64,000 nt of DNA, taken from the NCBI RefSeq assembly GCF_037042905.1, contig NC_087251.1:1178001-1242000 (forward strand), read 5' to 3'. The DNA comes from Lytechinus pictus. Its lineage: Eukaryota. The translations under genes were made by a program, and so were the position numbers. The notes beneath the pieces were generated by a model, which had not been told where the DNA came from, ran no database searches, and saw nothing but the letters and a program-made list of their open reading frames with translations. Of the stretch, positions 4,235 through 61,649 are shown piece by piece (position 1 is the first letter of the stretch; each line of letters begins with the position of its first letter).

Positions 4235-4240
4235 ACACCT

Positions 4241-4615
4241 ATGTAAACGATTGCAAAGTGATGAATGGTATGCCATTCAAATAATACAATAGCTCTGATC
4301 AGCCTCTCGCATCGATTGTGTTGGTATGACTAACACACCGTAATGTACAGTATAGAATGTGCATGGTAATAGAAATGTATCTGATTCAGAAGGATGTAAA
4401 GGGAAAAAGGGTGTTTCTAGCTGTTACATCATAAAGAAATTTATTTATTGAAGTCTTTTGGAAACATTTATAAGATACACTAGCACTGCAGGTAATAGAG
4501 ATGAAGTTCTGACATATCAATACATAACTGAAAGGAACATGTCAAAGCTACCCCCACCTTATCTGTATTTTGAATCTATGGCCTGTATTCCAAAATCAGG
4601 TTTATTTTCCAACAC
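4241..4615 (+). repeat. Left arm of a ~375-bp imperfect inverted duplication (partner 8427-8805)
   Basis: AACGATTGCAAAGTGATGAATGGTATG...GGCCTGTATTCC.AAATCAGGTTTAT is the reverse complement of 8427-8805 throughout, with scattered mismatches. Confidence 0.9.
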
Positions 4616-4889
4616 GTTCTAACTCTTTTCTAAATTTATGAAGAGCCAATACTCTGTTTATTGTATATCTCTTATGTTTACAACTCTGTTCCGTTTGCTT
4701 TCATAATGAAGGAAAAAAACCTCAATTATCATTCTCAGACAACTATGAACCATTTGGGGGTCAATATTAATGGAATTTGCTCTCCACAGTAAAAATCATT
4801 GGGGGTAATTCTGTCGTCAGTCAAAAAGTGATCATAGTTGAAAACCATAACGTAGTTCAGATGACCAAAGATCTTACATGGTATGTGAT

Positions 4890-7345
4890 GGTCGTTTACC
4901 AAAACAAAAGAAATCACGATCAAAATCAAAACGTCGAAAGAACTAACCAATCAGCGAAATGGACACAGCACACGATACTATCACAGATCCTGATCATTAT
5001 CAGTCTAAAGGCAGTCTATCCAACTTTGCATAATTTGACATAATACATACCAATGGACCACACACAGTTGTAAATTCAGAAGGCACAGTAGCATTTGCTA
5101 ACATTTACATATGCCCACAGAGCCGGTCAACATAAGCTCTACCTAAGAGTTGACTCAAGTGCAAGTACTAACACTATCATAGTCCGTACGCCAAGGAAAT
5201 ATAAAGTTCAAAGTGGGAATCATTAGTGAAACAAACACCTGTAAAACTTGAAGCTTATGGTGAGATTCCAATTAAATGTAAAGGTACACTAATTTGACAT
5301 AAAATGTTACAGTCCAAAATGGTCAACATAGACATTCTATGTACCAGATGTCAAGGTTTCAGCTATCCTTGGGTTGTTAGGTTGCACTGACCTTGGAATT
5401 ATCACAATTTACTCAATGTACAATTATGACACACCAACACCTAACCCTAAACCTGAACAAATACTTATCACAAGTGATGAGGATCTCGAACAAGCATTTC
5501 CAGAGCAGTTCGATGCTATTGGTAGTTTCAAAGGAAAAATCGATGCTTCATGTCAAGGACATCGCTAAACCTACCATAGACGCACCACGCAAGTGCAGCA
5601 CATTAATTGAAGGACAAGATCAACGTGGAGGAACACGACAAGAATCGGTACTTGTTCATGGAGACGGCAAAGCAAGAAGGCTCAGTGTTCAACAGCTCCA
5701 AGTGCACAATCAAGAAAGAAGCTATCAACTTCTTTGGCTTTAAGTGCACTAGATCAGATATCTACTCAGATCCTAGCAAGGTAGAAGCCAACACATTACC
5801 CAAGTACTATTACCCAAGGACGAAGAGGATGATGTTCAGAAATGCCTAATATTGTTCAAATACCTAGCAGCATATATTTCTAATTTGTGGGAAAAGTCAG
5901 CACCACTTCGATAACTTCTCCACAAGGAAGTACCGTTCATCTGGGACGATGATCATGAACATTCCTAGAACAGCCTGAACTGTGCAGTATCATCAGGTGC
6001 ATGCCTACAGTTCTATGACCCAGAGAGAGAGGCCTGTCGAGATGGATACATCAATGAAAGATCTAGGAGCATGCCTTGCTTCAGGATGGTAACCTGCTGC
6101 GTTTGCATCCAAAGTCTTTCCACTGCACAGTCCAACTACTCAAACATAGAGGGAAATCTTAGTCCTAATGTTTGGTATCAAACGCTTCTATAATATCAGT
6201 TCGAGAAGGAATTCACAGTCATAATCAATCACAGACCACTGGAAATTATATGGAAAAAACTCTTACAAGTGCACTGCCGCATCTACAGCGATCGCTTATA
6301 ATCAAAGTCCAAGGAAACAGGTTTCAAGTCAATTACCGACCTGGAAACAACATGATTATTTCCGATTCATTGAGTTGACTTTGTAATCCCAAGGAAGCAT
6401 GCGATGTACCGTTAGGTGTCAGAGTTAAATCCATCTGCTCTTAGGAAAAAGATTCGCATATGCGATCGACTTATTACTCTTCGGAAAACAAAAGAGGACA
6501 GAACTTCAGAGAGAAACAGCTAATGATCAAATACCTAGATAATTATGGCAGATAGTTCCTAAGAGTTGGCCTGAAACAATCCAAGAGTTATTGAAATCCC
6601 TTATGCAGTATTGGTCGTATAGAGATAACATCGGATTATCACATGGAATACTCTTCACGGGAAGTCAAGTCATCGTACCGAAGTCACTGAGGAATGATAT
6701 CCTTCGACAGCTTCACCTAGGACACATGGGAATCGAAAGTACCAGCTGATTTGCTCGTGAGACAGTGTTCTTGTCAAACATCAACGAGGACATCGACCAG
6801 TTGATAAAGCAGAGTGAAACATGCCAGAAACATCAAGCAAGGCAGCAGAAAAAAAAGAAGTGGAATATCAAGCACATTACTTCTTCTCCACACTATCCAA
6901 GATCAAACGGATTAGCTCAGAGGATGGTTCGTACAGTCAAGAATCTGTTGACAAAATGTTCTCAGACTGGCCAAGACAGTCAACTAGCAATGATGAACCT
7001 GAGAGCAACACCAGTCGAAAGTTACTTTAGATTACCAGCAGAAATGTTATTTGGTAGACCCATCAGAACCACATTATCAAGTCACTATTTCTCGAGAGAT
7101 TCTACTGCCACTGATTTTCTCTTGAATAGGCAAGGCAAGGTGAAGGAAGTGCATTATCGACATGCAAGTTCTGATCTACCACCTCTGCATGTAGGACAGC
7201 CAGTGAGAGTTATACATCCAAGATAACACACTTGGATACCAGCTAAAGCATCCGAAGTCTGTGAGGAACCAAGGTCTTACGAAGTATCAAAGCCAAACGG
7301 AGGAATCTTGAGAAGGAACGGATCACACGTGAGGGAAATTCCATC
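4890..7345 (+). mobile_element. Decayed Ty3/Gypsy gag-pol relic (protease, partial RT, RNase H, integrase) with many frameshifts and deletions
   Basis: Protease-like LYLRVDSSASTNT; RT C-terminal EEHDKN...FNSSKC...INFFG...DPSKVEA; RNase H ...QVNYRPGNNMIISDSLS; integrase LHLGHMG and WNIKHITSSPHYPRSNGLAQRMVRTVKNLL...LRATP...PAEMLFGRPIRT. Confidence 0.9.
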
Positions 7346-8182
7346 CACCATCCCCACTCCAAAGCAGGAATCGAAATTAGCGGTCGCCCGGGTGACGTTG
7401 GCAACCAAAACTGCCATCATGGTTGCCCGGATGGCAACCAAGAAAATTCCATGGTTTTTTTTCTCAAAGAGAATAAAATTCTGACTCTTGAATTTTGCAG
7501 CACGCAAAATTGCTTTTCCAGTCCAAAGTTTACAACTTCTGGATCAGGAATATATCTTTCAAGATCACATTGGCACAACGTTTTAGCTCAAAAAGATCGC
7601 CCAAATGTAGCACATGAGCCTGCCAATGACTTCTAAGATTGACTGCCTGTTTGTCAAAGTCCTCCTTAAGAACCATAAAGCTTGCATTTTGACATGATAT
7701 AAGTTAATTGTTGGAAGTTGTAAAATGCAATTTACAGCAGGCCTTTTCCGTGGTACTGATTCGTCACCACATTTTCTACTTTTGAAAATATTAAATAGAT
7801 TAATAACACAGCCATACACATCTCAATGTTCCAAAATGCCTTCAACTTCTTTACATTGGTCAACAGAAAGAGGTTTTTGTCATTTTTGGCACTTTAATGA
7901 ATCAGAATTGTTTTATTTAAATTGTAAAGAATAAAGATAACCCACTCAATTAATTTCTCATACTCAGAATACCCTCAAAATATTTGTAAAAGTTCTTTTG
8001 TCAGAATCCAAGATGGCCGTCAAAGTGCCGGCCAAGGGACAATATTCAAGTTTTCAGAACATCAAAATAAATTCATTCAGTATACGACTCCAGGATTGAA
8101 AAGGTGAAGGTTAGAAAAACTTATCAATGTGGTGAAAAGGGGTGGTAAAGATAATGACAATATAGTAATTTAAGTCTGTAAA

Positions 8183-9556
8183 ATGCAGTAAAAAAATCAA
8201 TTTCTTAATAATTGTATATTAGGAAAGTTTTCTAGAAAGTTTCAAGGGAATTCCTTTATTTTTCTTAGATATATGGTAAATCAAGTATTTTGCAAATTTT
8301 CATTTTTGGGGAAAACAGTTTCAAAATGCACTTTTCTTATTAAGATCAGCCGAATTACCTTTTCATCACCTATGAATAATACCAACTTGTAGAAAATTTA
8401 TTCATATTTCATATGACACTAATTTTGTGTTCGAAGATAAACCTGATTTAGGAATACAGGCCATATATTCAAAATACAGATAAAGTGGGGGTAGCTTCGA
8501 CATATTCCTTTGAGCTGTGTATTGATGTGTAAGAACTTCATCTCTATTACCTGCAGTGCTAGTGTTATGTGTATCTTATAACTGTTTCCAAGAGACAATA
8601 TTTAATAAATTTCTTTATAATGTAACAGAAACACATTTTTTTGTCTTTGCATCCTTCTGAATCAGATACATTTCTATTACCATGCACATTACATACTGGA
8701 CATTACGGTGTGTTAGTCATACCTACATAATCGATGCGAGAGGCTGATCCAAGCTATTGTATTATTTGAATGACATACCATTCATCACTTTGCAATCGTT
8801 TTCATGGATGTGACTGCCACAATAAGGTTGTTTTTGGCCTGACTTTAGCGCAAAATCGCTTAATACATTCAGCATATTTTCCTTCTATTTGAAGCAAATG
8901 AAGATACTTATGGTGGCATGAAGCCTGCCAATATTCTCGTTGATACATCCTCTTTCATATCGAATGTTGAGATTGTGCATTTATTACTGATATTCATAAT
9001 AAATCTGATCAATAACAGTGCATATGCAATTTTTTTTACCAAAAACATACTAATTTTAGCCAAAAGTCTTAATTCTTTTAAAAACTATATCAACCGACTT
9101 GAAATCGAAGAATAAAGGGATTGTAGTAAATTCTACCAACAAAATAATAGATAATTTCGCATTTTATTAAGGCCTATTTCCATTTTCTGGGTTGAAAATG
9201 TGACAATATACATTATAGTGTATCTCCGATATGCAGTAAAAAAGCAAAATTTCTGAAAATTGAATTTTCAAGTTTGAGACATAATAAGTTTGTGACTAAA
9301 AACGACATCGATTTTGAATTTCGTCCACTTAATAATTGTATATTAGGAAAGTTTTCTAGAAATTTTCGGGACGATTCCTTTATTTTCTTTAGATTTATGG
9401 TAAATCATGTATTTCGCAATTTTTCAATTTTTGGGAAAAAAATCTCAAAATTGTGCTTTTCTTATTAAAATCTCAACTGAATTACCATTTCATCACCCCT
9501 GAAAAGTATCAACTTGTAGAAAATTTATTTATCTTTCATATGACACTAATTTTGTG
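8183..9556 (+). repeat. Dispersed direct duplication of ~250 bp (8183-8429 and 9231-9556)
   Basis: Both copies share CTTAATAATTGTATATTAGGAAAGTTTTCTAGAAA...CAACTTGTAGAAAATTTATT...TCATATGACACTAATTTTGTG. Confidence 0.85.
8427..8805 (-). repeat. Right arm of the inverted duplication (partner 4241-4615)
   Basis: Reverse complement of 4241-4615. Confidence 0.9.
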
Positions 9557-11453: not shown

Positions 11454-12374
11454 GGTAATTGTCCTGGGGTAGTTGTCCGGGGGGAAGTTATCCGGGGGGT
11501 AGTTGTCCGGGGGGTAATTGTCCGGGGGGTAATTGTCCGGGGAATAATTGTCCGGGGGGGTAGTTGTCCGGGGGGTAATTGTCCGGGGGGTAGTTGTCCG
11601 GGGGGTAGTTGTCCGGGGGGTAGTTGTCCGGGGTGTAATTGTCCGGGGTGTAATTGTCCGAGGGGTAATTGTCCTCGGGGGGTAGTTGTCCTCGGGGTGT
11701 AATTGTCCGGGGTGTAATTGTCCGGGGTGTAATTGTCTGGGGGGTAATTGTCCGGGGGGTAGTTGTCCGGGGTGTAATTGTCCGGGGTGTAATTGTCCGG
11801 GGGGTAATTGTCCTCGGGGTGTAATTGTCCGGGGGGTAATTGTCCGGGGGGTAATTGTCCGGGGGGTAGTTGTCCGGGGGGTAATTGTCCGGGGGGTAGT
11901 TGTCCGGGGTGTAATTGTCCGGGGTGTAATTGTCCGGGGGGTAATTGTCCGGGGGGTAGTTGTCCGGGGTGTAATTGTCCGGGGTGTAATTGTCCGGGGG
12001 GTAATTGTCCTCGGGGTGTAATTGTCCGGGGGGTAATTGTCCTCGGGGGGTAGTTGTCCTCGGGGGGTAATTGTCCGGGGGGTAATTGTCCGGGGGGTAA
12101 TTGTCCGGGGGGTAGTTGTCCAGGGGGTAGTTGTCCGGGGTGTAATTGTCCGGGGTGTAATTGTCCGGGGGGTAGTTGTCCGGGGGGTAGTTGTCCGGGG
12201 TGTAATTGTCCGGGGTGTAATTGTCCGGGGGGTAATTGTCCTTGGGGGGTAGTTGTCCTCGGGGGGTAATTGTCTGGGGGGTAATTGTCCGGGGGGTAAT
12301 TGTCCTCGGGGGGTAATTGTCCGGGGGGTAGTTGTCCGGGGGGTGATTGTCCAGGGGGTAGTTGTCCTAGAACC
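11454..12374 (+). repeat. G-rich 15-bp minisatellite (GGGGGGTAATTGTCC / GGGGTGTAATTGTCC / GGGGGGTAGTTGTCC), roughly 60 units, ending in a GTCCTAGAACC terminus; probably the subterminal array of a MULE/foldback-type transposon
   Basis: The tandem units are directly visible. The overlapping GGNCP/GVIVR ORFs are translations of this repeat. Confidence 0.9.
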
Positions 12375-16104: not shown

Positions 16105-17860
16105 TCCTTTATCACATGGCAGCCCAAGACTGAATTGGGTAAAATTTATATCGTATAATAAAATACATCAAATAAATCAATATACATATCAACCATAACA
16201 TCTTCAAATCATGATCAAAGATTAATAAAGGAAGGAGAAAGAGAGAAATTAACAGAACCTAGAAGGAATAAGTGACAGATAATACAGGGGGTGGTATAGA
16301 CAGGCAAATGAGTTGAAGGAGGTGTGGGGAGAGTACTCTGAAAGAAGAGGGATGTAATGGAAAGTGAGAAAAAATAAAACAAAGGCATATAAATCATACA
16401 TGGTATCATGGGTATGCAAATACAATTTTGAAGTAAGTATATAAATCAAGGTATAACACATGCGGTAAAAAACTCAAACATATTAATTTAAATTTAGGAA
16501 ACCACGCTGATGAGTATAATGGGAAATAGTGTGGAGAAAAGTAGTATAAGAGATTGCAGTTTAAGTCATTGGGTAAATTAAATTTAGAAGATTGGAGAGA
16601 CTTCAAAAGTACATAGTGACAAATTTGTATAATTTGAGTTAAAAGAAATATTGTGGTGCTTCATGCATGTAGTTTTACATCAAGAGTTTGGACGGGGTAG
16701 ATACAATTTACCAGCATAGAACAATAATTAATAAAAAGTTGATTACAATAAGTTGGCTGTACAAAAAAACACATTAAAATTGATTTACAACAGGCGTGAA
16801 AGATAGGGTATTGGACTGTTTCTACATTATGTCTTTGATTCCTGCTCCTCATGTTCACAAATTTGCCAGTGTGTTATACCTGTGTTTACTACGCGGGGGT
16901 AAGAAATGATGGAACTTTGAAGAAGAGTCAAGCATGGTCTCAGCAAACTTCACACTGAGAGTGTACCTTCTGTCACTGAGGGAAGATATGTTCAGATGTT
17001 CTCTAGCATCTGCATACCTTATATCATGGCCCAGTATAAACTGGCAGGCACGTTTCTAGATACGCTAAAATGATTCCTCCTGCATCTTCATAATACCGCT
17101 TGACCAGACTGGAACTGCATATCCAAGACGGGACGAAAGATGCTCAGGTATATGGTAAGTATATCAAGAGGGGGTAGGCCATGATGCTTTAGTCTGCGGA
17201 GTATGTAGTGGGGACTATTGCTTCTGCTGATCATAGAATTGATATGCGTGTCCCATTTGAGGTTGGAATGAATGAACACTCCGAGTAACTTGATCACATT
17301 GCAGTGCTGAATGGTGTGCTGATCAAGGACAAGGGAGGTGGGAACTAGACAAACTCTCGCAAAGCTGATGTCCATTGTCGCACATTTTTTGGGTTAAGTC
17401 ACATGTTATTCAACTTCGCACATTGGTGTAATTTATTCAGAGCTGATTGGAGTTGAGATGGCGTAGAAGACATATGACTTTCAATCAGTGTCAAGTCGTC
17501 GATATACTTGAAACAGCGTATGTTGCTACTCGCAAATGTGTCATCTTTATGGATCATCGCATCATTGATCATAGCAGAAAACGCCACAGGGCCCAGCTTT
17601 GTCCAATGAGGTATACCTGAGTTGAGATAACAAGGTCCAGAGAGAACACCTTTGTACCTCACTTGTTGCTGATTGGAGAGAAAGTCTGAAATCCATGCTC
17701 CAAGTGATGGAGCAATTCCCATGTTGACCAATTTCCTAATTGCAATTGAATGGTCGACAAGGTCAAAAGCTTTAGAAAAGTCTGTCAGGAGAGCTGTTGA
17801 TACAGACCGAGGTCGATCTGCGTGTGCATGAAGAGTGAAAGGACATCCACAAGGTGGTAG
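16105..17860 (-). mobile_element. 5'-truncated CR1/L2-group LINE: reverse transcriptase C-terminal half plus 3' UTR
   Basis: LLTDFSKAFDLVDH...WISDFLS.QQQV...SGIPHWTKLGP...KYIDDLT, then KLLGVFIHSNLKWDTHI...LRRLK...IYLSIFRPVL. The frame is broken by frameshifts. Confidence 0.88.
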
Positions 17861-17934
17861 ATACAGCTGGGAGATTGCCAAAGAGGGCGCATCATTCGAA
17901 GTACATTGCGGGCTATGAAGTGTTCTCCGATTTC

Positions 17935-18040
17935 CGGGTATTATCGACAATGAGAAAAAGTTTATCGATATCGCTAAGAGGCAAAAAACAAGCGATTATC
18001 AACAAGACTAGCGATAAAGAGGTTATCGATAACAGCACTA
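17935..18040 (-). mobile_element. hAT-like terminal fragment (second copy at ~20872-20976)
   Basis: Both copies end ...CTAGCGATAAAGA.GTTATCGATAACAGC(A/C)CTA, a TAGGG/TAGTG-type terminus with repeated TTATCGA motifs. Confidence 0.6.
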
Positions 18041-20979: not shown

Positions 20980-22270
20980 ATCTTAACCAAGGTTAAGTTT
21001 TTGAAATGTCATCATTACTTAGAAAGTATATGGACCTAGTTCATGAAACTTTGACTTCAGGGTAATCAAGTATTACTGAACATCCTGCCTGAGTTTCGGG
21101 TCACATGGTTAAGGGCAAAGGTCACTTAAATGTCAATGTACTGGCCATGTTGGGGTTATTTGAGGAATTGTCATCATAACTTTAAAAGTTTATGGATCTA
21201 GTTCATAAAACTTGGACATATGAGCATTAATGTATCCCTGAATATCATGTGCGAGTTTCAGGTCACATGACCAAGGTCAAAGGTCACTTAGGGTTAATGA
21301 ACTTTGGCCATGTTGGGGGTATTTGAGGAATTGTCATCATAACTTTGAAATTTTATGGATCTAGTTCATGGAACGTGGACATAAGAGCAACCATGTATCC
21401 TTAAACATCCTGTGCAAATTTCAGGTCACATGACCAAGGTCATAGGTCATTTAAAGGTCAATGAATAGTGGCCATATGTGTGGAATTGGCATCATGACAT
21501 AGAAAGTTTATGGATCTACATGTAGCTCATAGAACATATAACATCGACATAAGGGTTCTAAAGTGTTTAAATGAAAACTGAAATCTTATTTACTGAGTAA
21601 CTATGGAAGTGATTTTTCGTGTGTTATTTATCAGTTAATGCTAAATTATCAATACGTTTCATCCCCCCCCCCCTTTCCCGGGCCTGGCTGGTCTCTGTCC
21701 TCATGTCCCCTTTTTTTGTCCCTTTTGTACATAAATGTTTCCCTCTTCTCTCCCCGCCTCTCTCTTTAGTTATCATATTATATTGCCATTTCTGTGTTGT
21801 TTATCCAATGTTCTTTGAATTCGTAATGAGGAACCTTAATTTACAAGCATTGTTACACTTAGGTCTCCTCGTCTTCCTTTAAAATTATTTCTTTTCTGTC
21901 TTAAGCTGTATAATGTATTTAAAAACAATGTTTTCTGCATACTCTGTTTTATGTATACCTGTATGTTTTATCATGTACTCTGCTTATTGTTTCATACACA
22001 CTGTATGTTTGTCATGTATTCAAACTCAAAGTTGGAAGACAAATAAAATGAACTTATGAACTTAACTTATCAAGTATGAATGATTATTTTGCACATGTCT
22101 TAGGTCACATGATCATGGTCTAAGGTCATTTTGGGTTAATGGACATATTTTATTATCATATTAGTGTTTTCTTCTGTGAATGATTATTAATTAGCTATTT
22201 CTAAAGGCAGCACTGCTGCTATATCGAATTGCGTAATGCAGGCGAGACTGCCAGAGGCATTCCACTTGTT
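20980..22270 (+). mobile_element. HINE family A, 5'-truncated copy interrupted by a LINE-like 3' tail (~21560-22068)
   Basis: Repeated GGTCACATGACCAAGGTCAAAGGTCA units and a 3' ATGCAGGCGAGACTGCCAGAGGCATTCCACTTGTT end. The insert ends AATAAAATGAACTTATGAACTT. Confidence 0.75.
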
Positions 22271-27759: not shown

Positions 27760-30380
27760 CAGTGGCATAACAGGCGGGGGGCAGGAGGGGTGCAAGCTGC
27801 CCCCCCTGGCGGATTTCACCAGGAAAAAAACGGGAAAAAGAGCAAAGGGAGGGAGAAAGAAAGGGAAAGGGGAAGGAAAGGGGAAAAGGAAAGGAGGAAA
27901 AGGAAAGGGAAAAGTGAAAAGAAAACGAAGATGACAAAGTGGCAAACAATAGCGGGAAATGAAGGTAGAATGGAATTAGTCAAAAGCTAAATTGGAAAAC
28001 AAAGAAAAGGGAGAAAAAAAAAAACACTTAATAACACGACCGGGCTGCCGAGGATTGAAAATAAAGAGCGGGAAGAAAGATAGACAGCATACAACATTGT
28101 GCTATAAGCTTTCTAAATTTCATGCAAATAAGCTACCAGGGCTTTGCCCCAGCCCCCCCCCCCCTGAGTAGGGGCTCTTCATCTATAACCTTCAAATGGC
28201 TCTATAAGGCCCCCTTGTAGGGACCCTTCCTACATTAAGCTTTACGTGATCAATGGCGTACAGGCGCGGGGGAGGGGATCTTGGTTCCACACACAACAGG
28301 AAATAAAAGAAATTATAGGAGACAACGTATAATGAAATAAATGGAAACAACGAAATGTGTTATTTGCAGAATAGAATGGAAAATCTATCACATAATTAGA
28401 ATTTAATTTCAATAGGCAATTTTTTTTTCCAGCTCACTTTAATTGCTCGCAGGCGTTTTTTTTTTATACAAATTTTCCCACATTGCTATGTTTTGCCCCC
28501 TCAAAATATTTGGGTCATTACTGGGATGAATAAATGTGTTGTGTAAAAGCTATAAATTTTGTATATACCCGCGATTTTTGATTAAAAATAGCAGCAATCT
28601 GCGTTTAAATGGCTTTGATATCAACCGCATAGCACTGCCGTATGGAAGGGTTGGGCCATGGCCCCAACAGTTCTACAACCAAGAACAAAAAAAGGAGGAA
28701 AGAAAAGCAAAGCAAAAGTGTAGGGTATGATTTTATTTACTGAATATAATGTCAAAAAGGTATCTCAAAGTTAGTTTCTCATGAATAGGTGATTTTTTTT
28801 CTTGCTTGCTTCGCTCGCTCGGGACTTATATTAAGCAGCTTTTTAGCACATGCGCCATACTGCACCCCTCATTTTTTGTCTCGCCTGCATAGCAGAGCGA
28901 GAATATAGGCGCCGCTTTTCCGACGGCGTCAACATCAAATCTTAACCTAAGGTTAAGTTTTTGAAATGACATCATAACTTAAAAAGTATATGGACCTAGT
29001 TCATGAAACTTGGACATAAGGTTAATCAAGTATTACTGAACATCCTGCCTGAGTTTCAGGTCACATGACCAAGGTCAAAGGTCATTTAGGGTCAATGAAC
29101 TTAGACCATGTTGGGAAAATTATTTTCAAAATCTTAACCGAAGGTTAAGTTTTTGAAATGACATCATAACTTAAAAAGTATATGGACCTAGTTCATGAAA
29201 CTTGGGCATAAGGTTAATCAAGTATTAGTGAACATCCTGCTCGAGTTTCAGGTCACGTGACCAAGGTCAAAGGTCATTTAGGGTCAATGAACTTTGGTCA
29301 AGTTGGGGGCATTTGTTGAATTACTATCATAACTTTGAAAATTTATGGATCTAGTCCATGAAACTTGGACATTAGGTTAATCAAGTACCACTGAATATCC
29401 TGTGTGAGTTTCAGGTCACATGACCATGGTCAATGGTCATTTAAGGTCAATGAACTTTGGCCGTGTTGGGCGTATATGTTAAATTACCATCCTAACTCTG
29501 AAAGTTTATGGATCTAGTTCATAAAACTTGGACATAAGAGTAATCAAGTATCACTGAACATCCTGTACGAGTTTCAGGTCACATGACCATGGTCAAAGGT
29601 CATTAAAGGTCAATGAACTTTGGCCGTGTTGGGGGTATTTGTTGAATTACCATCCTAACTCTGAAAGTTTATGGATCTAGTTCATAAAACTTGGGATATA
29701 AGAGTAATCAAGCTTCACTGAACATCCCCTGTGAGTTTCAGGTCACAAAACCAAGTCAAAGGTCAGTTAAGGTCAATAAACTTAGGCCATGTTGGGGTAA
29801 TTGTTGAAGTGCCATCATAACTTTGAAAGTTTATGGATAGAGAATGAATGAAATGTGGACATGGGTGTAGTTGACAAGTCTTAAGTCACCGTTCAAATGT
29901 CATCTATGGTCAATGAACGTGGTATTATATCATTATATGAATGGTGTTTTTGTGAATGATTATTTTATAGTAGTTTTCAAAGTTAGCACTGCTGCTATGT
30001 TAAATTGCGTAATGCAGGCGAGACTGCCAGAGGCGTTCCACTTGTTTTTTACTCTTCACGCTACTGCCGCAAAGAATCCTGTTCACAGTGGCGTATAGAC
30101 CACAAAAAAAGAACGGAAAGAGAGAAGAGTGAAATATATTATTCTCTGGATATCATGTCAAAATCTATCACAAAATTGGATTTTTGTATTAAAATTGTCA
30201 AAAATTTTGCTCGCTCGCTCGCATTGTTTTTAAAAAAAAGATAGACTCTGCCCGATATTCAATATCTGGCCCTCTCAAAATCGTCGCCTCATTACACCAT
30301 TACGCCTGTTCATACCATGATATGACTGGGAAATTTTTGGCTCTTGCCCCCCCTGGCCACCGACCCCTGTTACGCCGCTG
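27760..30380. mobile_element. Non-autonomous hAT-like element with 8-bp TSD, hosting a HINE insertion
   Basis: TATGTCTG|CAGTGGCATAACAGG ... CCTGTTACGCCGCTG|TATGTCTG. Confidence 0.85.
28872..30046 (+). mobile_element. HINE/DINE-1-like (Helentron-associated) element, family A, full-length with a central ~163-192-bp tandem array
   Basis: 13-bp subTIRs GTCTCGCCTGCAT (28878-28890) and ATGCAGGCGAGAC (30012-30024), a 5' hairpin, T-rich ends with no TSD, and about five to six internal repeat units. Confidence 0.88.
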
Positions 30381-36283: not shown

Positions 36284-38003
36284 AAAATATAGTTTCTATC
36301 AATGGAAATGCTGAAAGGTGTATGTTAACCAACAATGTAGCCAGAATTTTCAATTAGGGAGTTCAATTCCTTTTTCTTTCCTTGCTGAAAAAAATTGAGG
36401 AGTAAAAAAAAAGTCAAAGGTTTTGACCATTTCGTCTCAGAAAAAATTTGACAAGCAAAATAAAAACGGGTCATCGATCTGAAATGGACCCCCCCCCCCC
36501 CCCCCCGGCTACGGGCTTTTCAACCATATGCTGTGTGACTGAAGGTTGTGATATTTGTTGGTCATCATCAGTCAGTGAATGAAGGCGTAATATGAGTAAT
36601 CAGACTTTCTTCCCATAAATTAATGTTTTGATTGGCAGTATGAGTCATATTCATTGACAGCACTTGAAGGAAGGGGAATCATTCCTGATGAATCTATTCA
36701 AGGTCCTACATCGGAATAAATTTCATAGAATATCATCTCAAGTACACAAATATCAATGCTTATGCTGAATTTTTTTATAGGGGAAAATCATACACATTTC
36801 CATGGCAATATCTTTAGGTACCATTCATAATGTACATGTACATGTAATGTAGACTTTAGAGCAATCGTAGAAAGCCTAGTTTAGAGCCACAAATAGCCGT
36901 TGGCTAACCAGAATCCATTGCCCAAATGATGAGAGCTTTCCCCCTTTCATTCTTGCATAATATCTGTATGCCATTAACATGTCTCCCATGACATTTGGTT
37001 TCCGCGCTAGATGAGTCTTTGCATTCTTTGCACACCTTGACTGCACTCACAAGTATTTGGCCTCTTTCCATCACTTTCTTCATTCTTCTCTCTCTCTCTC
37101 TTTCTCTCTAAACTCTTTTCTTTCTATCATGCATCTTTGACTATTTTATATCCCAAAGAATCTTTCTCTCTCTTCCCCTTTTTTATCTCTTACTCACTCT
37201 GTCTCCGATTCTCTTTAGCCTCTCTGTCTTTCTATCATCTGTCTCCTTCTACGAGGCCTTTTGATCTGTACTTCTTTATCCAAACTTCTTTATTTTGCCT
37301 TTGCTACAATCATAGGTAGAACCTCATGTATAGGCCTATATTACCTTTTCACCCGAACATGTTTGTGTAGTATTTTTGTACACACAAAATGATAGTTCTT
37401 TTGAAAATATATATATATACTAGTATCTCGTACGACAATATATATATTTTTTCTATACCTGTAGATGCTTGCCTCAATATTCATTTTCCCATGCTATTAT
37501 TAGCCTCTATTTACATGTACATGTACATCTCCAATGTTTAAATTCATGAGTACAGCATCTAATCAAGTCTTGCAACAACTCATTGCTATTCATATGACAT
37601 TTAGATGTTATTAGATCATATACCAGGCTAATACGATTCATAATGCTGAGAATATTTTCATCTTAATACTCAATCATGAACATACTATAATGCAGACTAA
37701 TACATACATCTTGGGACAGGAGGCGCTATGCCACAGTAATTCAGTTAACTTTTTTTATACCTGGCGTTCCCATGGTTGGTATTTCTTATTTTGTATTGTT
37801 TATACTGAAATGTATTTTTGTATTATTTGCCAAATAAATATAATGATATTAATGATAATAGTTCATTCAGCCAGAGAAACTATAATAGGGCCCGAATTCA
37901 CAAAGGTGGTATTTAAAACTGTTTGGGTTTTTTTACAATGAAAGAGAAGAAAATTCACTCTTAAAAAAAGATCAACCCAAAATATCATGTCTTGTTGACT
38001 TAA

Positions 38004-38402
38004 GGCCACCGCACACCTTACGACTGTTCGCGATCCGATTTTGGAACAAATCGCATTTTGCTCATTTTCTGAAGATGTTAATGGAACATATCATTTTATT
38101 TGAGCTTAAAATTAATTGAAAGAATAATATTATAACCATTTTGAAAGATTGCAAGCCTTTATTTTGGAGGACAAAGTAGTTTCAAATCGTAGCCAATCGT
38201 ACGACTGCTATGACGTCATTACGACTAGATGTTAAATTCGCTAGAAGGGTGATACCATAGTCACAGATTTGATCATAGGTATTCGTACGATGATTTAGAA
38301 CATTACACAGTAAGATATTCCAAGTCTCAATATTAGCATCAAATTCTACTACATTTTATTCTGAAATCAGGTCGCAGATCAGTCGTAAGGTGTGCGGTCG
38401 CC
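38004..38402. mobile_element. TTAA-flanked MITE
   Basis: TTAA|GGCCACCGCACACCTTACGACTG ... CAGTCGTAAGGTGTGCGGTCGCC|TTAA. Confidence 0.85.
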
Positions 38403-38864
38403 TTAAGATGAGTTTCCCCAAATCATTCATCTGAAGGTACTTTTGGTCAGATGCCTTTTGAGAGGAGGGTCATTCCATGGGGTTGGGGCAAAAATTGTGA
38501 CATCATGGTCAAAAAATAGAAATGTAATAAATGAAAAGTTTTTTTTCTTATATGTTTCATGGGACAATTCTTCAACTAAATCCACTTACAGGCATTTCAT
38601 ACCACCCTGCATATTTGAGTAAATTGCGAAACAAGATTTGACAAAATACCACCGTTACACGGACATCATTTATCATCCTTACTTAGACTATACTCTCCCA
38701 CTGTCAAAATAAAAGGGTTGATCTCAATTCCTCTTAATAAATATTTTGCTAACAACATTTTTAGTCACTTTATTCAACATTTTCCAACATGGCATATATA
38801 TTTTGAAAGATTTAGCATCAATAAATGGAACTTGATGCTCTGTGTGTATACCAGTGCCATGTTC

Positions 38865-39645
38865 TGTGTCGCTCTTTTTTCTCACCAGTCAAGAAAATTC
38901 AATTTATGATGGCATGTAGAACTAAATAGTTGACAGAAGTCATGCCTCAACAGAATGGAATATTCTTTTTGGAAAAACTCAACTACTCTTTCTGGCCTAA
39001 CCTTCTATTTTTGGTGTTACCACCGTTACATGGACATCATGTCTCTGTAACAGAGGTATAATTTGAAGCATTGTAAGTTAAGGTCCATTAATGGTCATCA
39101 CATACCAAATTACACTTTCTGCCTTAAATTATTTGCACAAGATCAATTGATTATATTAGAAAAAAAAACATTTTGCATGTCAAATTCTTTGCAAATAAAA
39201 GAAATTTAAATTAGAGTTTAAACAAAGAAAAATGTACAAAATTATTGACAAATTATGTGTCGTTCTTTTTTCTCACCAGTCAAGAAAATTCAATTTATGA
39301 TGGCATGTAGAACTAAATAGTTGAGAGAAGTCATGCCTCAACAGAATGGAATATTCTCTTTGGAAAAACTCAACTACTCTCTCTGGCCTAACCTTCTATT
39401 TTTGTTTGGTGTTACCACCGTTACATGGACATCATGTCTCTGTAACAGAGGTATAATTTGAAGCATTGTAAGTTAAGATCCATTAATGGTCATTACATAC
39501 CAAATTACCCTTTCTGCCTTAGAATATTTGCACAAGTTCAATTGATTATACTAGAAGAAAAACATTTTGCATGTCAAATTCTTTGCAAGTAAAAGCACTT
39601 TAAATTAGAGTTTAAACAAGGAAAAATGTACAAAATTATTGACAT
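38865..39645 (+). repeat. Tandem duplication, two copies of a ~391-bp unit, inside the Sola2-like element
   Basis: TGTGTCG.TCTTTTTTCTCACCAGTCAAG... starts at both 38865 and 39256, and the copies are near-identical. Confidence 0.92.
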
Positions 39646-41039
39646 TATATTTAAAATCATACTAATCCTCAAGGTTCCACTTCCGTCTGTCTCTGGAAAC
39701 ATTTATGTTTCTGTCTAAGGGGGAAAAAACGAAACAGTGCTATCTTACGATCTCCAAATCTTTTATTACTTTGAAATATCTCCTTCAAGATATTACTTTC
39801 AAATGTAGATACCTCTGTTACACGGACATCATGTCCTTGTAATGGTCATATTGAATAGCATTACTTGAATATTTGACATATTTTTCTAGTATCAACACAC
39901 TAAATGCAAGTTAACTCATCTTACTCAAGTGTACAAATACAACATCTACAAGCAAGCTTCTGTAATTCATATCAATGAACAGGTAAAATGTTTTTTTTAT
40001 TCATACACAATTATACAATTTTTGATACAATATTCAGGTGAAAAATATGTAGGGAAAAGGTACTCGTTTAGTTCTTCTAAGCTATGGTTTTTCAAGATAA
40101 AACAAGGCAAAGTTGGCATGGAAGACATGGACAACGCATTTATACCTTACACATATAAACTGTTCAATTTGTTAACTCTAATTTGTTTTACCTCAGTTAC
40201 ATGGACATCATGTCCTCAAAATGGTAGTGTAGAATTGACATTAATTAAAATATAATCATGTCATCACTGGAACTTACATACATTAGATAAAACATTAAGT
40301 TCCAACATGCGAAATTAAAAGGACAATTGTAAAGTACTTAGTGGACAAATTTGATTTAAAAAACTCACCACCTTTATATCTTCTGTTTTTTAACAGAGTT
40401 GTAAGCGAGAAAGTAAAATGTACTAAGCTATTCTTATGTTAAAAAATAAAACTGCAAGAACTCTTTGGTAAACTTCTTACTGGCAAATGCAAAAAAATGT
40501 ATTACACTGTACACAAAACCTGACTATTAAAATTAACATGCAATATTTCTCTCTGCATTCAGGTTACAAGTTTATGAACTTCAAGAAGACTGGTGACCCA
40601 ATAAGAAATTTCAGTTTGGAAGAGGATTCTGTCAATGTCACAAAGTGGATGGAGGTAGAATTGTGCCTCGCCATCAGGCCAGGAGTACAGGTCACCAGAT
40701 TGACACTTCATGTACTGAAGATATACATTTTCACCTTGAACAGAGGCTACCTGTAGTTGAGAAAAATAGTATTTGGAAGTTTGACTATATTTTTAAAGCA
40801 ATAAGCAAATATTTGTTATATTATATCAAATCATTTACTTATTTATGTCTTGACATTTTCTCATTAAAGGGGGTGGATTACTAGGGACAATGAATCTGAT
40901 CTGTTCTTGCAAAATACACAGGAACCTTCACTTTGTATTTTTTCATAGCAAATAGAATTCATCATTTCATAGTTCATAAATTAAATATAAAGTTACGTTT
41001 TATAGAAGGTTTTTGTATTTGTGTTGTTGTGTTCTACTT

Positions 41040-41203
41040 TGTTTTCACAATACATTTAAGAAACATCTCAAGACTCTGCTTTTTAATCAATAATATTTAC
41101 ATGTATTAGTTATTATAATTTTCTATTGTGTAAAGCGCTGTGAAACGATGATATATTGTAAGAGCGCTATATAAATGAACATATTATTATATTATTATTA
41201 TAT
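41040..41203 (+). mobile_element. LINE/SINE 3' tail (CR1/L2-type) nested in the Sola2-like element
   Basis: TGTAAAGCGCTGTGAAACG...AAGAGCGCTATATAAAT followed by (ATT)n. Confidence 0.6.
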
Positions 41204-41863
41204 AATTACTTGCCCATTACCTTTTCATAAATTATCTGTACTTCAATTTCATTTCTCAATGGATCAATTTAATCTAATTTTATTCTGCATTCTAATCAAG
41301 GGTATAGTTATCTAGAGAATTCCATTTATTTTTTTATGACCATCCTATTTAATTTTCATCGCTGAAGTTTAATTGTTCAAGCAATTACATAATTTATGTA
41401 TGTTTTATTGGAATTAAATGAATTAATGGAATTCAAATCTGCAATTTACCTTCTGATACAGCAAATAAACTATTGTGAAACAAACTTGATTGTGTCACAT
41501 TTTCTTTTGTTCACTTGTACATGTTTTAAAAATCTCATTATATCGCAATAAAAAAAAATCACATTGAAAACAATCACACAGGCTTTTGCTTTCTGATAAA
41601 ACGAACCCCCCCCCCTCTCCTTACAATTGAATATATTGAAATCAAAATACAAAATATTGAGAGAAAAAAAGAATGTGCTGAAAAGTATAACATTCAACAA
41701 GATGAAAAGTTTTGGGAAGGTTAGGCCTACAGCCAAGAATTACTAGTAATTGGATTATGGCCATGCTTCATCATACACAAAGCACATGTACTATGTGTAG
41801 GGGGTAGTAACAGAAAAATTATTTTGCCCCCCCCCCCTTTTTTCGGATTGGGATCAGCTGACA

Positions 41864-41916
<53 letters not shown>

Positions 41917-43558
41917 GGGGGGGGGGGGGGGGGCGTGCCTCCCCCGTGGCGCTGCCACTGGTTCTAAACTCTCATTTTGGGGGGGAAATTCAAAATTGAT
42001 CATCAGGCCTTTGATACCCATATTACGTAGAATCAGTAGGAGCCAATTTAAACAAGGTGAGATTTTGGACCAAATCTGAGATGTCGGCATGATCATCGGT
42101 GATAGAGCAGTTTTGAGTATCCATTGGGCTATTGAAATAACATATTTCGGTGTTTAAAAAAATCAACTAAATTGCGATTGAATCATGTCAGCTAACATTC
42201 AAAACATGTTTGCACGGAATCACAGTAATAAAACATTATTTCTTTGGGGCCGTTTAGCAAATCTGGAACAAACACGGCGATGTCTCAATCACATATTTCA
42301 CTTAATGACTTACACGAAAAGATACATGTGGGACTGTAGTAAAAGACTATGGAAAATTAGCGAGATTTTTCAAACTTAAAAACACTTTCTGCATGATAAT
42401 ATAGTTTCACATTTTTAAGATAAGGTTTAACTGATTTAAAAATACGAGTATCGGGATAAATCTCCGTACTTACGTCGCTTTGAAAGGGAAAACATCGTGG
42501 AGATCCAATCCACCGTTACACGGACATTGCGGGAAGATTCCCAATTGCAATGCTGCAAAACACCCGATATCATAGCCGTTCGTGTGCACGTGGATTTCGG
42601 CTAACATCCCGTCCGTCTGATACAACGACGGTCTATTCTCCGGTCTCTCCTTTTTACATACGCGATGAAATGTGATCCACCGTTACAAATTTGGCCCGGA
42701 CATCGCCCAAAACATCGGCGACCCTCGATTAATTTACATGACATTAACATTGGTTTTCAAAGCTTATCTTTTGATGAAAAGTTGCTTACTGCCTGCCCTT
42801 TATTTCTGACACATAACTTTGGAAAGAATGATTTCTGACTTTTAGTTATTTACCACTTTACCGCCGTTACAGAAAAAAATAAACGCGGACATCGCATGTA
42901 ACGGTGGTATGCGATGTTGTAGGAATGATTTATGATATGAAGCCTCTTTTCATTTGCTATCCCATTACTGTCTTGTTATTAAACAAATGTTGCTTTATCA
43001 ATCATGGCCATTTGAATTTGACTAAGTTTATCTTTTAATTAGATATCTTCAACTGAAAATGACCATTTTGGATGTCACACCTGGTACCCCAAAAAAGAGT
43101 CTGGACATCATCATTTAAAGTCTCACCATCAAAAATACTTGAGGTTCAACATTTTTATTTCTGCATCAAGTAATTGCTTACATAACTGCCTTCCAACAAA
43201 ACCACATTGCAACATCCAAACGCCAAACACATTTTCAGGATAAAGCCAACAATTCATAGGGAACACAAAAAAGTGCTGTTGCCCCAACCCCGTGGAATGA
43301 CCCAGGAATAATTGTTTATTTGCTATATGGGAATATAATACTGTACATTTACTTTCATTGCATCTCAAGCAAAAGTCTATATTCCTAGACTGCATTTGAT
43401 AATTGACTAGATGAAGACTGAAGATCAGAAAAGTGTTTGTACAGTATGTACATGTAGTTCATATTATCAGTTTACTGCTTGCAAAGGCCTTTTCCATAAT
43501 TTGGAATGTGTTCTTTGTGTACATATGAATTAAAGCTTTGGTAGAAGCAGAACATGAT

Positions 43559-43752
43559 GGGTGTTTCATAAAGATATTCGTATTAAGTTAAGAGTGACTT
43601 TAAGAACAATGACTGGTGAACCTTTCTTATGGCATGCACTGAATAGTCACCAATGATCATTTATATAGTGAATATCATTTACCACAAGAAAGGATCACCA
43701 GCCGAACTTAAAGTCACTCTTAACTTACGAACAGCTTCATGAAACGGCCCCC
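43559..43752. mobile_element. Short palindromic MITE
   Basis: GTTTCATAAAG...TAAGTTAAGAGTGACTTTAAG versus CTTAAAGTCACTCTTAACTTA...CTTCATGAAAC. Confidence 0.75.
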
Positions 43753-45506: not shown

Positions 45507-45842
<336 letters not shown>

Positions 45843-60336: not shown

Positions 60337-60358
60337 TTGCATCTTTATATCCATACAG

Positions 60359-60570
60359 TCGGACATCAAGGAATCACAGGCCAAGCTGGTTAAACAATTG
60401 ACTGCCCAGATATCCCAATCACCGGGCCCTCCGACCCGCAAACTCCTGGGCAAGTGCATCGCTACCGTGTTTCAAGTCGGTGACACCTTGGCTCTCTATC
60501 AAACCTTAAACTTTTGTAATGACATCATTAAGAGCAAAGATGACTCTCCAAGTTATCTGCCAACTCGATT
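60359..60570 (+). CDS. HEATR5B: HEATR5B-like, next coding exon (212 nt, phase 0 to phase 2); the gene continues beyond the window
   Basis: CT-rich tract and CAG acceptor. It translates as [70 protein letters not shown](L), matching the HEATR5 [24 protein letters not shown] region. TT|GTAAGT donor. Not present in the ORF track. Confidence 0.95.
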
Positions 60571-61649
60571 GTAAGTACCAAGGGAGGATGGAGGCCTTTA
60601 TGACCGGTAGATCATTTCTCCACATCACCTTAGCTCTATTCTTGGATATTCCTTTGAATTGTGTGTTACAAAATTAAATAATATTTTCCAGGGATGTCCA
60701 TTAACTTTTTATGATGTTCTTTAGAAAGAAGTCCCTTGGAGCTCATTCCATTTCATTTGATATTCTGTCCCAAGGTCAATTGTAGTCATGCATGTATTGT
60801 CATCTGATTATAATTTGTGCTTTGTATAATGGAAATTTGTAATTGTGTAGATAGCCAAACACCTAGAGAGATTGTGTTAAATGACTGGGAGTGATTATTA
60901 AAGTTTATTTCTTTTACATGAGTTCCTTCTAGATATTGGAATGAATGTGGCAAGGAATCCATTGAAGTTTGTGCATGTAGATACTGGATTCATTGGAATA
61001 TGAGGGGGATTTTAAGGGCAGTATGGTGTAAGAATATATTGTAAAACATGCTCATGTTCATATACACGATAAATGATGATACAGAATTTATATAATTATA
61101 TCAAAATTAGATTATTGAAATTGTATGTAATTCACTCATTGTTAATCATACGAAAATATGTGCAATTTTGATGCTTTCTAGCATTTTTGGAACAAAAAGG
61201 GATAATGGTGATAAAGAAATTACAAAGTCTTCGGTATCATTAATTAAGAATGGAAAACTATTGATTTTCATTGGGGAATATTTCTTGAAATTGACCCAAG
61301 GAAGGACGGAGAGTATTAGACAATTTCCAACACAAATGATTGTTTTCATCCTACTAAAAATTTTCTCCTGTGTAAAGCGTAGCACATTAAAATAATGCTT
61401 TACAAAAGGACCTCAAGGAACCCACAGCCCTATCATTTCCAGTTCAATGCTTAAGATCATACACACTTCTTTCACGCCTTGGGGTTAAGAATGCTATTGG
61501 TTCACCATCTTGTATTATTGAGATGATGTTTTATAGATTAACATGTCTGACAGTAGTATGCTTGGTGTGATGAATCATGGGGATGGTAGTACCCAAGGCT
61601 GAATTTACCAACTTCACACATAGTTATAGTTGAGTGTGGTAGGCCTGTA

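Follow-up and report, generated by a model that had tools for sequence, protein, structure and literature searches.

Genomic context of the element

The window analysed here, a 64,000-nt stretch of the Lytechinus pictus genome, is repeat-rich animal DNA with a GC content of 31–41 %. It contains a 4,837-bp element (38467–43303) that carries the repeats described below, as well as two plus-strand exons (45590–45796 and 60350–60574) that we take to be HEATR5-like; neither exon returned a match in Pfam or the PDB. The element may lie in the first intron of, or upstream of, this HEATR5-like gene. Repeats of several other kinds are found elsewhere in the window, including an element of ~4.6 kb with interrupted inverted arms of roughly 380 bp (4235–8811), a 15-bp GC-rich tandem unit present in 60 copies and open in several frames (11454–12367), two arrays of one 163-bp tandem unit (21003–21465 and 28937–29838) and retroelement remnants with RT_RNaseH and RVT_1 Pfam matches (592–1575 and 17402–17995). 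A MITE of ~409 bp with 31-bp terminal inverted repeats (TIRs) between TTAA sites (37999–38407) lies 60 bp to the left of the element, and displays very high depth in four sequencing runs, with several hundred on both strands in the RNA run. To the right, a stretch of 144 bp with perfect 21-bp inverted ends (43584–43727) resembles a small MITE-like hairpin.

A gene-less copy with Sola2-type ends

The element has the appearance of a non-autonomous copy without genes (Table 1). Its two TIRs match at 24 of 25 positions, with similarity ending after 25 bp. The left edge coincides with that of a DNA contig from run X9, whose match begins exactly at 38467, the adjacent flank being without depth in the same run. 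A 4-bp target-site duplication (TSD), AGGA, is present on both sides of the single insertion examined.

Table 1. Features of the element and of its repeats, in window coordinates
Feature	Position	Strand	Basis
Left target-site duplication, AGGA	38463..38466	.	sequence
Left TIR, 25 bp, starts GGG	38467..38491	+	inverted-repeat match and X9 contig edge
Site 1: half-site only (A+B), no right arm	38647..38667	+	
Tandem duplication, ~395-bp unit, sites 2 and 3	38855..39644 (38855–39245 / 39246–39644)	+	
Site 2: full 41-bp imperfect palindrome	39018..39058	+	
Site 3: duplicate of site 2	39413..39453	+	
Site 4: palindrome, partly decayed right arm	39810..39850	+	
Site 5: half-site and strongly decayed right arm	40189..40229	+	
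Exon-like piece, opens with core GTTACA	40563..40790, right end approximate	+	splice acceptor AG 40561–40562
CpG-rich stretch (o/e 1.1–1.5) containing the right-end sites	42220..42960	.	
Site 6: half-site (A+B)	42508..42527	+	
Site 7: A, 9 extra bases, B	42675..42704	+	
Site 8: A, 14 extra bases, B, inverted A, forming a 51-bp palindrome	42859..42909	+	
Right TIR, 25 bp	43279..43303	-	inverted-repeat match
Right target-site duplication, AGGA	43304..43307	.	sequence

No open reading frame (ORF) of the element exceeds 121 aa, and no transposase is present in it, nor is there any Cas, integrase or recombinase gene (largest ORF ≤121 aa). Five element peptides and one peptide of the neighbouring gene gave no Pfam family, the element peptides gave no match in two homologue searches, and the best Atlas score of the element ORFs (0.78) was uninformative. 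A search of representatives with the element peptides returned three matches, two of which were artefacts of repeat-rich sequence and were set aside.

With regard to classification, Sola2 elements reportedly carry a 5′-GRG terminus, a rule that the GGG start of this element fits. The amoebozoan Sola2 families (DFa and PPa) have short TIRs and a 4-bp TSD, as does the urchin element, whilst differing from it in their AT-rich AWWT target, which AGGA does not match, and in the transposase that it lacks (PMC3627910); the AWWT rule may not cover all Sola2 elements. Sola transposases are described as having no Pfam domain (PMC5751038), and Repbase assigns an element to a classified family by alignment of its terminal 11 bp (PMC4455052). 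The earlier note had placed the repeats inside a Sola2-like transposon. A TIR transposon with Sola2-type ends is indeed present, but because the element has no transposase, membership is unproven, and Sola2 here denotes a structural likeness of the ends only. Features of Foldback or Muta1-type MULE elements are not shared, the TIR being only 25 bp and the TSD 4 bp. The terminal 10 bases (38467–38476) open with GGGTC, as does the Muta1 terminal motif, although TSD length differs.

A scan with the TIR pattern gave two matches in metagenome contigs of 59–60 % GC, otherwise dissimilar to the element, that were read as chance. Within the element, 150 bp at 41059–41208 are bypassed by contigs of runs X4 and X9 and constitute an insertion in this copy, and a poly-C/poly-A(47)/poly-G segment (41800–41965) resembles another small inserted element.

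Eight sites of a bipartite motif

A motif starting at 38647, 39018, 39413, 39810 and 40189, with spacings of 371, 395, 397 and 379 bp, had been reported in the earlier note, and all of these values were reproduced. Its description as an imperfect palindrome holds well at 39018, 39413 and 39810, where a second half-site is joined head to head to the first, but fails at 40189, which is badly decayed, and at 38647, which is without a right arm. The conserved unit is the left half, a bipartite stretch of 20–21 bp with an A part, TACCWCNGTTACA, and a B part, YGGACAT. Overlooked in that first reading were three sites at the right end (42508, 42675 and 42859–42909), as well as a possible remnant at 40563. 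The A-to-B unit lies on the plus strand at all eight sites, with a gap between A and B of 0, 9 or 14 bases, the extra bases of sites 7 and 8 falling exactly at the A/B junction. The palindromes combine two types of arm, ACC and TCT, either of which can come first. The sites form two clusters, one per end, the first site being 180 bp from the left end and the last 394 bp from the right; these clusters are direct, not inverted, in orientation, and the motif is outside the TIRs.

Across the 64-kb window the motif is specific to the element. The word GTTACAnGGACAT, a pattern picked after the data were seen, occurs five times in the duplication-collapsed element, and is absent from 300 dinucleotide shuffles and from the other 59,163 bp. 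In a profile scan of the window the nine best matches, comprising the seven training sites and two of their duplicates, were all within the element (23.7–34.3 bits), the best match outside scoring 11.6. The core GTTACA is found 12 times in the element, 11 of these being within the eight sites and the twelfth at 40563, 367 bp past the core of site 5 (in-phase P ~0.007, post hoc); this last example is possibly a decayed sixth unit. Scans with the motif pattern gave no match in viral or metagenome contigs, and two single matches in genome contigs, to bacterial records without an array, that were read as chance. That the palindromes might be marks left by another transposon, either excision scars or micro-insertions, with fused TIR ends, is scarcely credible: by eye, no site is flanked by a target duplication longer than TA, none is found in the other 59 kb, and independent scars would lack the even spacing of the left cluster.

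Changes amongst the five best left-arm half-sites are concentrated on CpGs, with 7 of 10 falling on the four CpG positions and five taking the form of CpG transitions. Despite this, CpGs persist in the motifs of the CpG-poor left arm, which hold 4 of its 13 CpGs in 144 of 1,675 bp (p = 0.02). These positions matter for a reading in which the sites recruit a host germline factor, such as Ovo/OVOL or A-MYB, with the array serving the element's gene as a germline enhancer or opener, kept from an autonomous parent. CCGTTA is the preferred and CNGTTA a tolerated Ovo site, common to A-MYB (PMC11789646), and CNGTTA is contained in the A part. Furthermore, CCGTTA occurs six times in the collapsed element compared to 1.0 in shuffles and three times in the other 59 kb, and the right cluster sits in a CpG-rich, promoter-like stretch. 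Against this, the conserved unit spans 20 bp including the B part, far beyond a hexamer, and CNGTTA by itself shows no clear enrichment (13 occurrences, with a shuffle mean of 6.8 and maximum of 15). The variable N of CNGTTA is a CpG position, and because 7 of the 10 half-site changes are on such positions, decay by deamination explains the degeneracy equally well. Sea urchins are not mentioned in PMC11789646. Recruitment of such a factor is accordingly regarded as unlikely.

Several resemblances of the palindrome centre were also considered and dropped. Look-alikes of p53 and RFX X-box sites, judged against the consensus sequences, have the wrong spacing, and a steroid-receptor IR3 look-alike was discarded; to our knowledge, the steroid receptors concerned with IR3 are absent from echinoderms. 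Site 4 was considered as an inversion of site 2, for which the arms fit, but the inverted flanks fail to align. A scan for sigma-70 promoters and terminators remained at chance level and is irrelevant to an animal.

Spacers and tandem duplication

Sites 2 and 3 stem from one tandem duplication whose copies are identical in 370 of 400 columns, and this leaves four independent left sites and three independent gaps (371, 397 and 379 bp). The breakpoints of this single event, 38855 and 39644, are close to the midpoints between neighbouring sites (38852 and 39631). When spacers were aligned on the plus strand, only pairs sharing the duplication aligned (z 30–100), all others giving z ≤2.6, and the spacers do not align as well as the motif. 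Compared in register, the four independent units reach an identity of 0.89 in the half-site, with 0.49 in the right arm and 0.22–0.37 in the other blocks. The motif has therefore been kept whilst the spacers diverged, in agreement with the earlier claim, and the array is not a simple homogeneous satellite. It is absent from the output of Tandem Repeats Finder, and a search for a second conserved motif in the spacers gave AT-rich k-mers alone.

The claim that the spacers are unrelated apart from the duplication needs some qualification: there is no local alignment between them, but a faint likeness is seen in the flanks of sites 4 and 5, which are 53 % identical compared to 46 ± 4 % for random pairs (p 0.009–0.047 by width). 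The flanks of sites 2 and 5 give p = 0.007 at one width only, and similarity 30–60 bp downstream of the sites gives p 0.03–0.09. With 12 pair and orientation tests per width, of which the values for sites 4 and 5 are the best, this likeness is weak; spacer homology is seen in at most two of six pairs.

This faint homology would be expected if the array were a neutral relic, i.e. an old satellite-like array of ~385-bp units in an ancestor of the element, in which conversion or strand switching had kept the palindromic part uniform whilst the rest decayed. Four points placed at random would seldom give gaps as even as the three independent ones (P ~0.001, post hoc), the duplication is one period long, and the in-phase GTTACA at 40563 is a further point in its favour. 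On the other side, the boundary of identity is sharp, falling from 0.89 to about 0.3, and the word is found again 2.3 kb away, with other spacings and split in two. Along with the retention of CpGs in the motifs of an otherwise CpG-poor arm, these features leave us giving the neutral relic little credence.

Copies in other sequencing runs

Evidence at the level of the family comes from four of 24 public runs (X4, X9, X15 and X23) mapped on 37900–41800; some part of 38467–41000 is present in 20 listed runs, carrying three organism labels and including one seawater sample. The X4 contigs (organism A) pass without a break through sites 1, 2, 4 and 5 together with their spacers, showing 3, 1, 2 and 5 differences; outside the duplication, depth in this run is 189–275. 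In X9 (organism B), one contig extends from the TIR through the first two sites and the spacer between them; its other 112 letters correspond exactly to the depth at 39558–39669, indicating one unit. X15 (organism C) harbours sites 1, 2/3 and 4, again accompanied by these spacers, with an identity of roughly 90–97 %. It has no depth at 40127–40519, a hole that a filter can also produce, and site 5 may be dispensable in this lineage.

The number of sites differs between lineages by one period-long duplication, since the duplicated unit is at 2.0–2.7 times baseline in X4, 1.1 times in X9 and 0.8–1.1 times in two spacer bin pairs of X15. These values are sums over homologous bins, contig depth is not copy number, and X4 and X15 may be either DNA or RNA runs. 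The X15 bins of motif 2/3 sum to 2.2 times baseline. That the duplication is private to the copy in the window was considered and is ruled out by the roughly twofold depth in X4. With regard to the conservation of motif relative to spacer across copies, X4, X9 and X15 share their spacers, but no excess conservation of the motif is apparent in X15, where none of the 12 listed differences lies within site 1 (p = 0.26, from a listing of 40 of the 201 difference rows).

The earlier note had likened the architecture to REP or CRISPR arrays and had suggested recombination sites for captured cargo. On this view the array would be built of cassettes, as in CRISPR or integrons, with cargo captured and exchanged between palindromes that act as recombination sites. 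Points in its favour are the repeat-spacer look, the ACC and TCT arms that combine both ways round and the A/B junction insertions of sites 7 and 8. In addition, the 2.2-fold motif bins of X15, together with the few X23 reads, which favour motif bins (4 of 5 compared to 2 of 9, p = 0.06), could mean that related elements exist with the motif and other spacers. However, X4, X9 and X15 agree in which spacer adjoins which motif, although rare variants would be invisible given that contigs drop them, and depth over the spacers is flat outside the duplication. The duplication breakpoints are mid-spacer, the X15 hole is not bounded by motifs, and the element has no ORF of recombinase or Cas size. 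Because this pairing of spacer and motif is constant in contigs of three organism labels, the spacers are a fixed body of the family and not acquired cargo; the comparison with REP/CRISPR arrays falls, and a cassette array is highly improbable.

Folding and RNA reads

Another suggestion of the earlier note was processed RNA hairpins; on this view, a transcript of the element would form hairpins, as RNA or single strands, that are cut out of it or recognised in place. Sites 2, 4 and 8 do fold beyond nearly all shuffles (z of -3.2, -3.2 and -4.5, respectively), and a mostly plus-strand transcript, by the usual convention, forms a small peak just downstream of the array in X23 (depth ~8–9, 40520–40781). 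Sites 1 and 5, however, fold no better than shuffles (z of -0.8 and -0.7), which leaves two of the four independent left sites unfolded, and no folding beyond shuffles was found for site 6. It is the left half alone that is kept, and differences between arms are mismatches, not compensatory changes. RNA depth over the array is 0–1.8 in ~6 % of one stranded total-RNA run (X23), no pile-ups of RNA ends are listed over it in this long-RNA run, and no Rfam match reaches the gathering score, the three obtained being sub-threshold and at chance level. The hairpin suggestion is thus not borne out, and we judge this origin of the repeats very unlikely.

The repeats as candidate docking sites

On balance, the repeats are best read as candidate protein-docking sites in the same orientation, with the binder most likely belonging to an autonomous partner. 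This reading is favoured by the long, element-specific word, by the decayed surroundings, by the clusters at both ends, by the variable gap between A and B and by the indifference of the motif to hairpin formation. The gaps of 0, 9 and 14 bases suit two binding modules, and not a hairpin or crossover site. Of the three options put forward in the earlier note, protein-binding sites fare best.

In the mechanism that we propose, the stretch would be the left arm of a non-autonomous cut-and-paste family with Sola2-type ends, each repeat acting as a docking site on double-stranded DNA whose half-sites can be paired head to head for a dimer. The left cluster may have grown through tandem duplication of ~385-bp units, the older of which, like the selection acting on the site, we infer. 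Spacers would then have drifted whilst the site was retained because copies with sites transpose better. Since mobilisation is all that selection can favour in a non-autonomous family, the partner's protein is the likeliest binder, putatively the DNA-binding domain of a transposase or an accessory protein, which might load or bridge the ends or keep the element open.

Some observations do count against docking sites. No binder was found in the element, which has no ORF of more than 121 aa, and the motif lies outside the TIR in direct clusters. Textbook subterminal repeats, unlike these clusters, are in inverted orientation at the two ends. The weakness of the spacer homology is also unfavourable, given that an origin by duplication predicts homology. 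The hole over site 5 in X15 and the absence of excess motif conservation amongst the X15 differences listed weigh in the same direction.

A stronger version holds that a Sola2-type animal transposon keeps a chromatin-phased docking array whose sites lie at multiples of ~190 bp counted from either end. The array would serve an accessory protein of the element's own, as an animal counterpart of VANC/TnpA anti-silencing in plants, and the spacing itself would be selected. This draws on the fit of seven gaps, including those to the ends, to multiples of 194 bp (P ~0.003, post hoc; P 0.025 when the three left gaps are treated as one), and on a duplication that has spread, is one period long and has its breakpoints midway between sites. 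We consider it rather unlikely. The earlier note had equated the ~390-bp period with two nucleosome repeats; published urchin values are 218 bp in gastrula and 240–250 bp in sperm and gonad (PMC12961432; bioRxiv 10.1101/2025.05.12.653534), and for this reason 385 bp is not two nucleosome repeats, being unlike both 2 × 218 and 2 × 240–250 bp. For a trimmed dinucleosome, a length of 400 bp is given (bioRxiv 10.1101/2025.05.12.653534).

Comparison with known systems

Close parallels are found in plants. VANC21 motifs of VANDAL21 in Arabidopsis are element-specific and non-coding, are arrayed in one orientation, have been gained via tandem repeat formation and differ in copy number between related elements (PMC5735166). 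They differ in being dense 9-bp motifs of a MULE that encodes its binder, with demethylation as the outcome (PMC5735166), whereas in the urchin array a partly palindromic 20-bp bipartite half-site recurs every ~385 bp, the element being an animal one with a 4-bp TSD and a putative binder. En/Spm TnpA is similar in having family-specific motif clusters towards the termini and an element-encoded binder, but its motifs are of 8–10 bp with at least four neighbours, in CACTA elements of plants (bioRxiv 10.64898/2026.08.24.746577). Features of the VANC and TnpA type that the urchin array displays are a motif confined to the element across the 64-kb window, the single orientation and a number changed by tandem duplication.

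In animals, the subterminal repeats of Muta1, a MULE of Aedes aegypti whose terminus begins GGGTC, lie inside the ends, can vary in number and raise binding and excision (PMC5499845). These are 12-bp tandem repeats with 3–4-bp linkers in a 145-bp TIR, inverted, with an 8–9-bp TSD (PMC5499845), in contrast to the direct sites of the urchin element, which are hundreds of bases apart and outside a 25-bp TIR with a 4-bp TSD. Sola1-1_Ec32 of Ectocarpus bears an accessory DNA-binding gene, ParB-like with a methyltransferase, for which self-binding is proposed (PMC12477816). It is, however, a 21.5-kb coding Sola1 element, and no such gene is found in the urchin copy; the string 'palindrom' does not occur in the main text (PMC12477816).

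Neither a binding study of Sola transposons nor internal arrays of spaced motifs in Sola elements were found in a literature search that left most subscription papers and Repbase outside its scope. DNA transposons with cis motif arrays have been described before, but the combination of wide, even spacing, unrelated spacers, a long bipartite site and a Sola2-type host was not encountered in the literature searched. The array is a well-known kind of feature in an uncommon arrangement, and not a new immune-like system. If the docking-site reading is true, it provides a concrete 20-bp candidate recognition site for the Sola superfamily, and array growth by one period could be compared between related species. 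Were the binder an accessory anti-silencing protein, a plant strategy would be extended to animals.

An exon-like piece downstream of the array

Over its first 23 codons, the exon-like piece at 40563–40790 agrees at 21 positions with the C-terminal 23 residues of the L. pictus profilin-like protein XP_063952826.1. This is a singleton 'profilin-like' model in L. pictus, in which similarity to profilin ends near residue 110. The match is not evidence of cargo capture; another copy of the family probably donated a terminal exon to the host gene model, replacing the normal profilin end.
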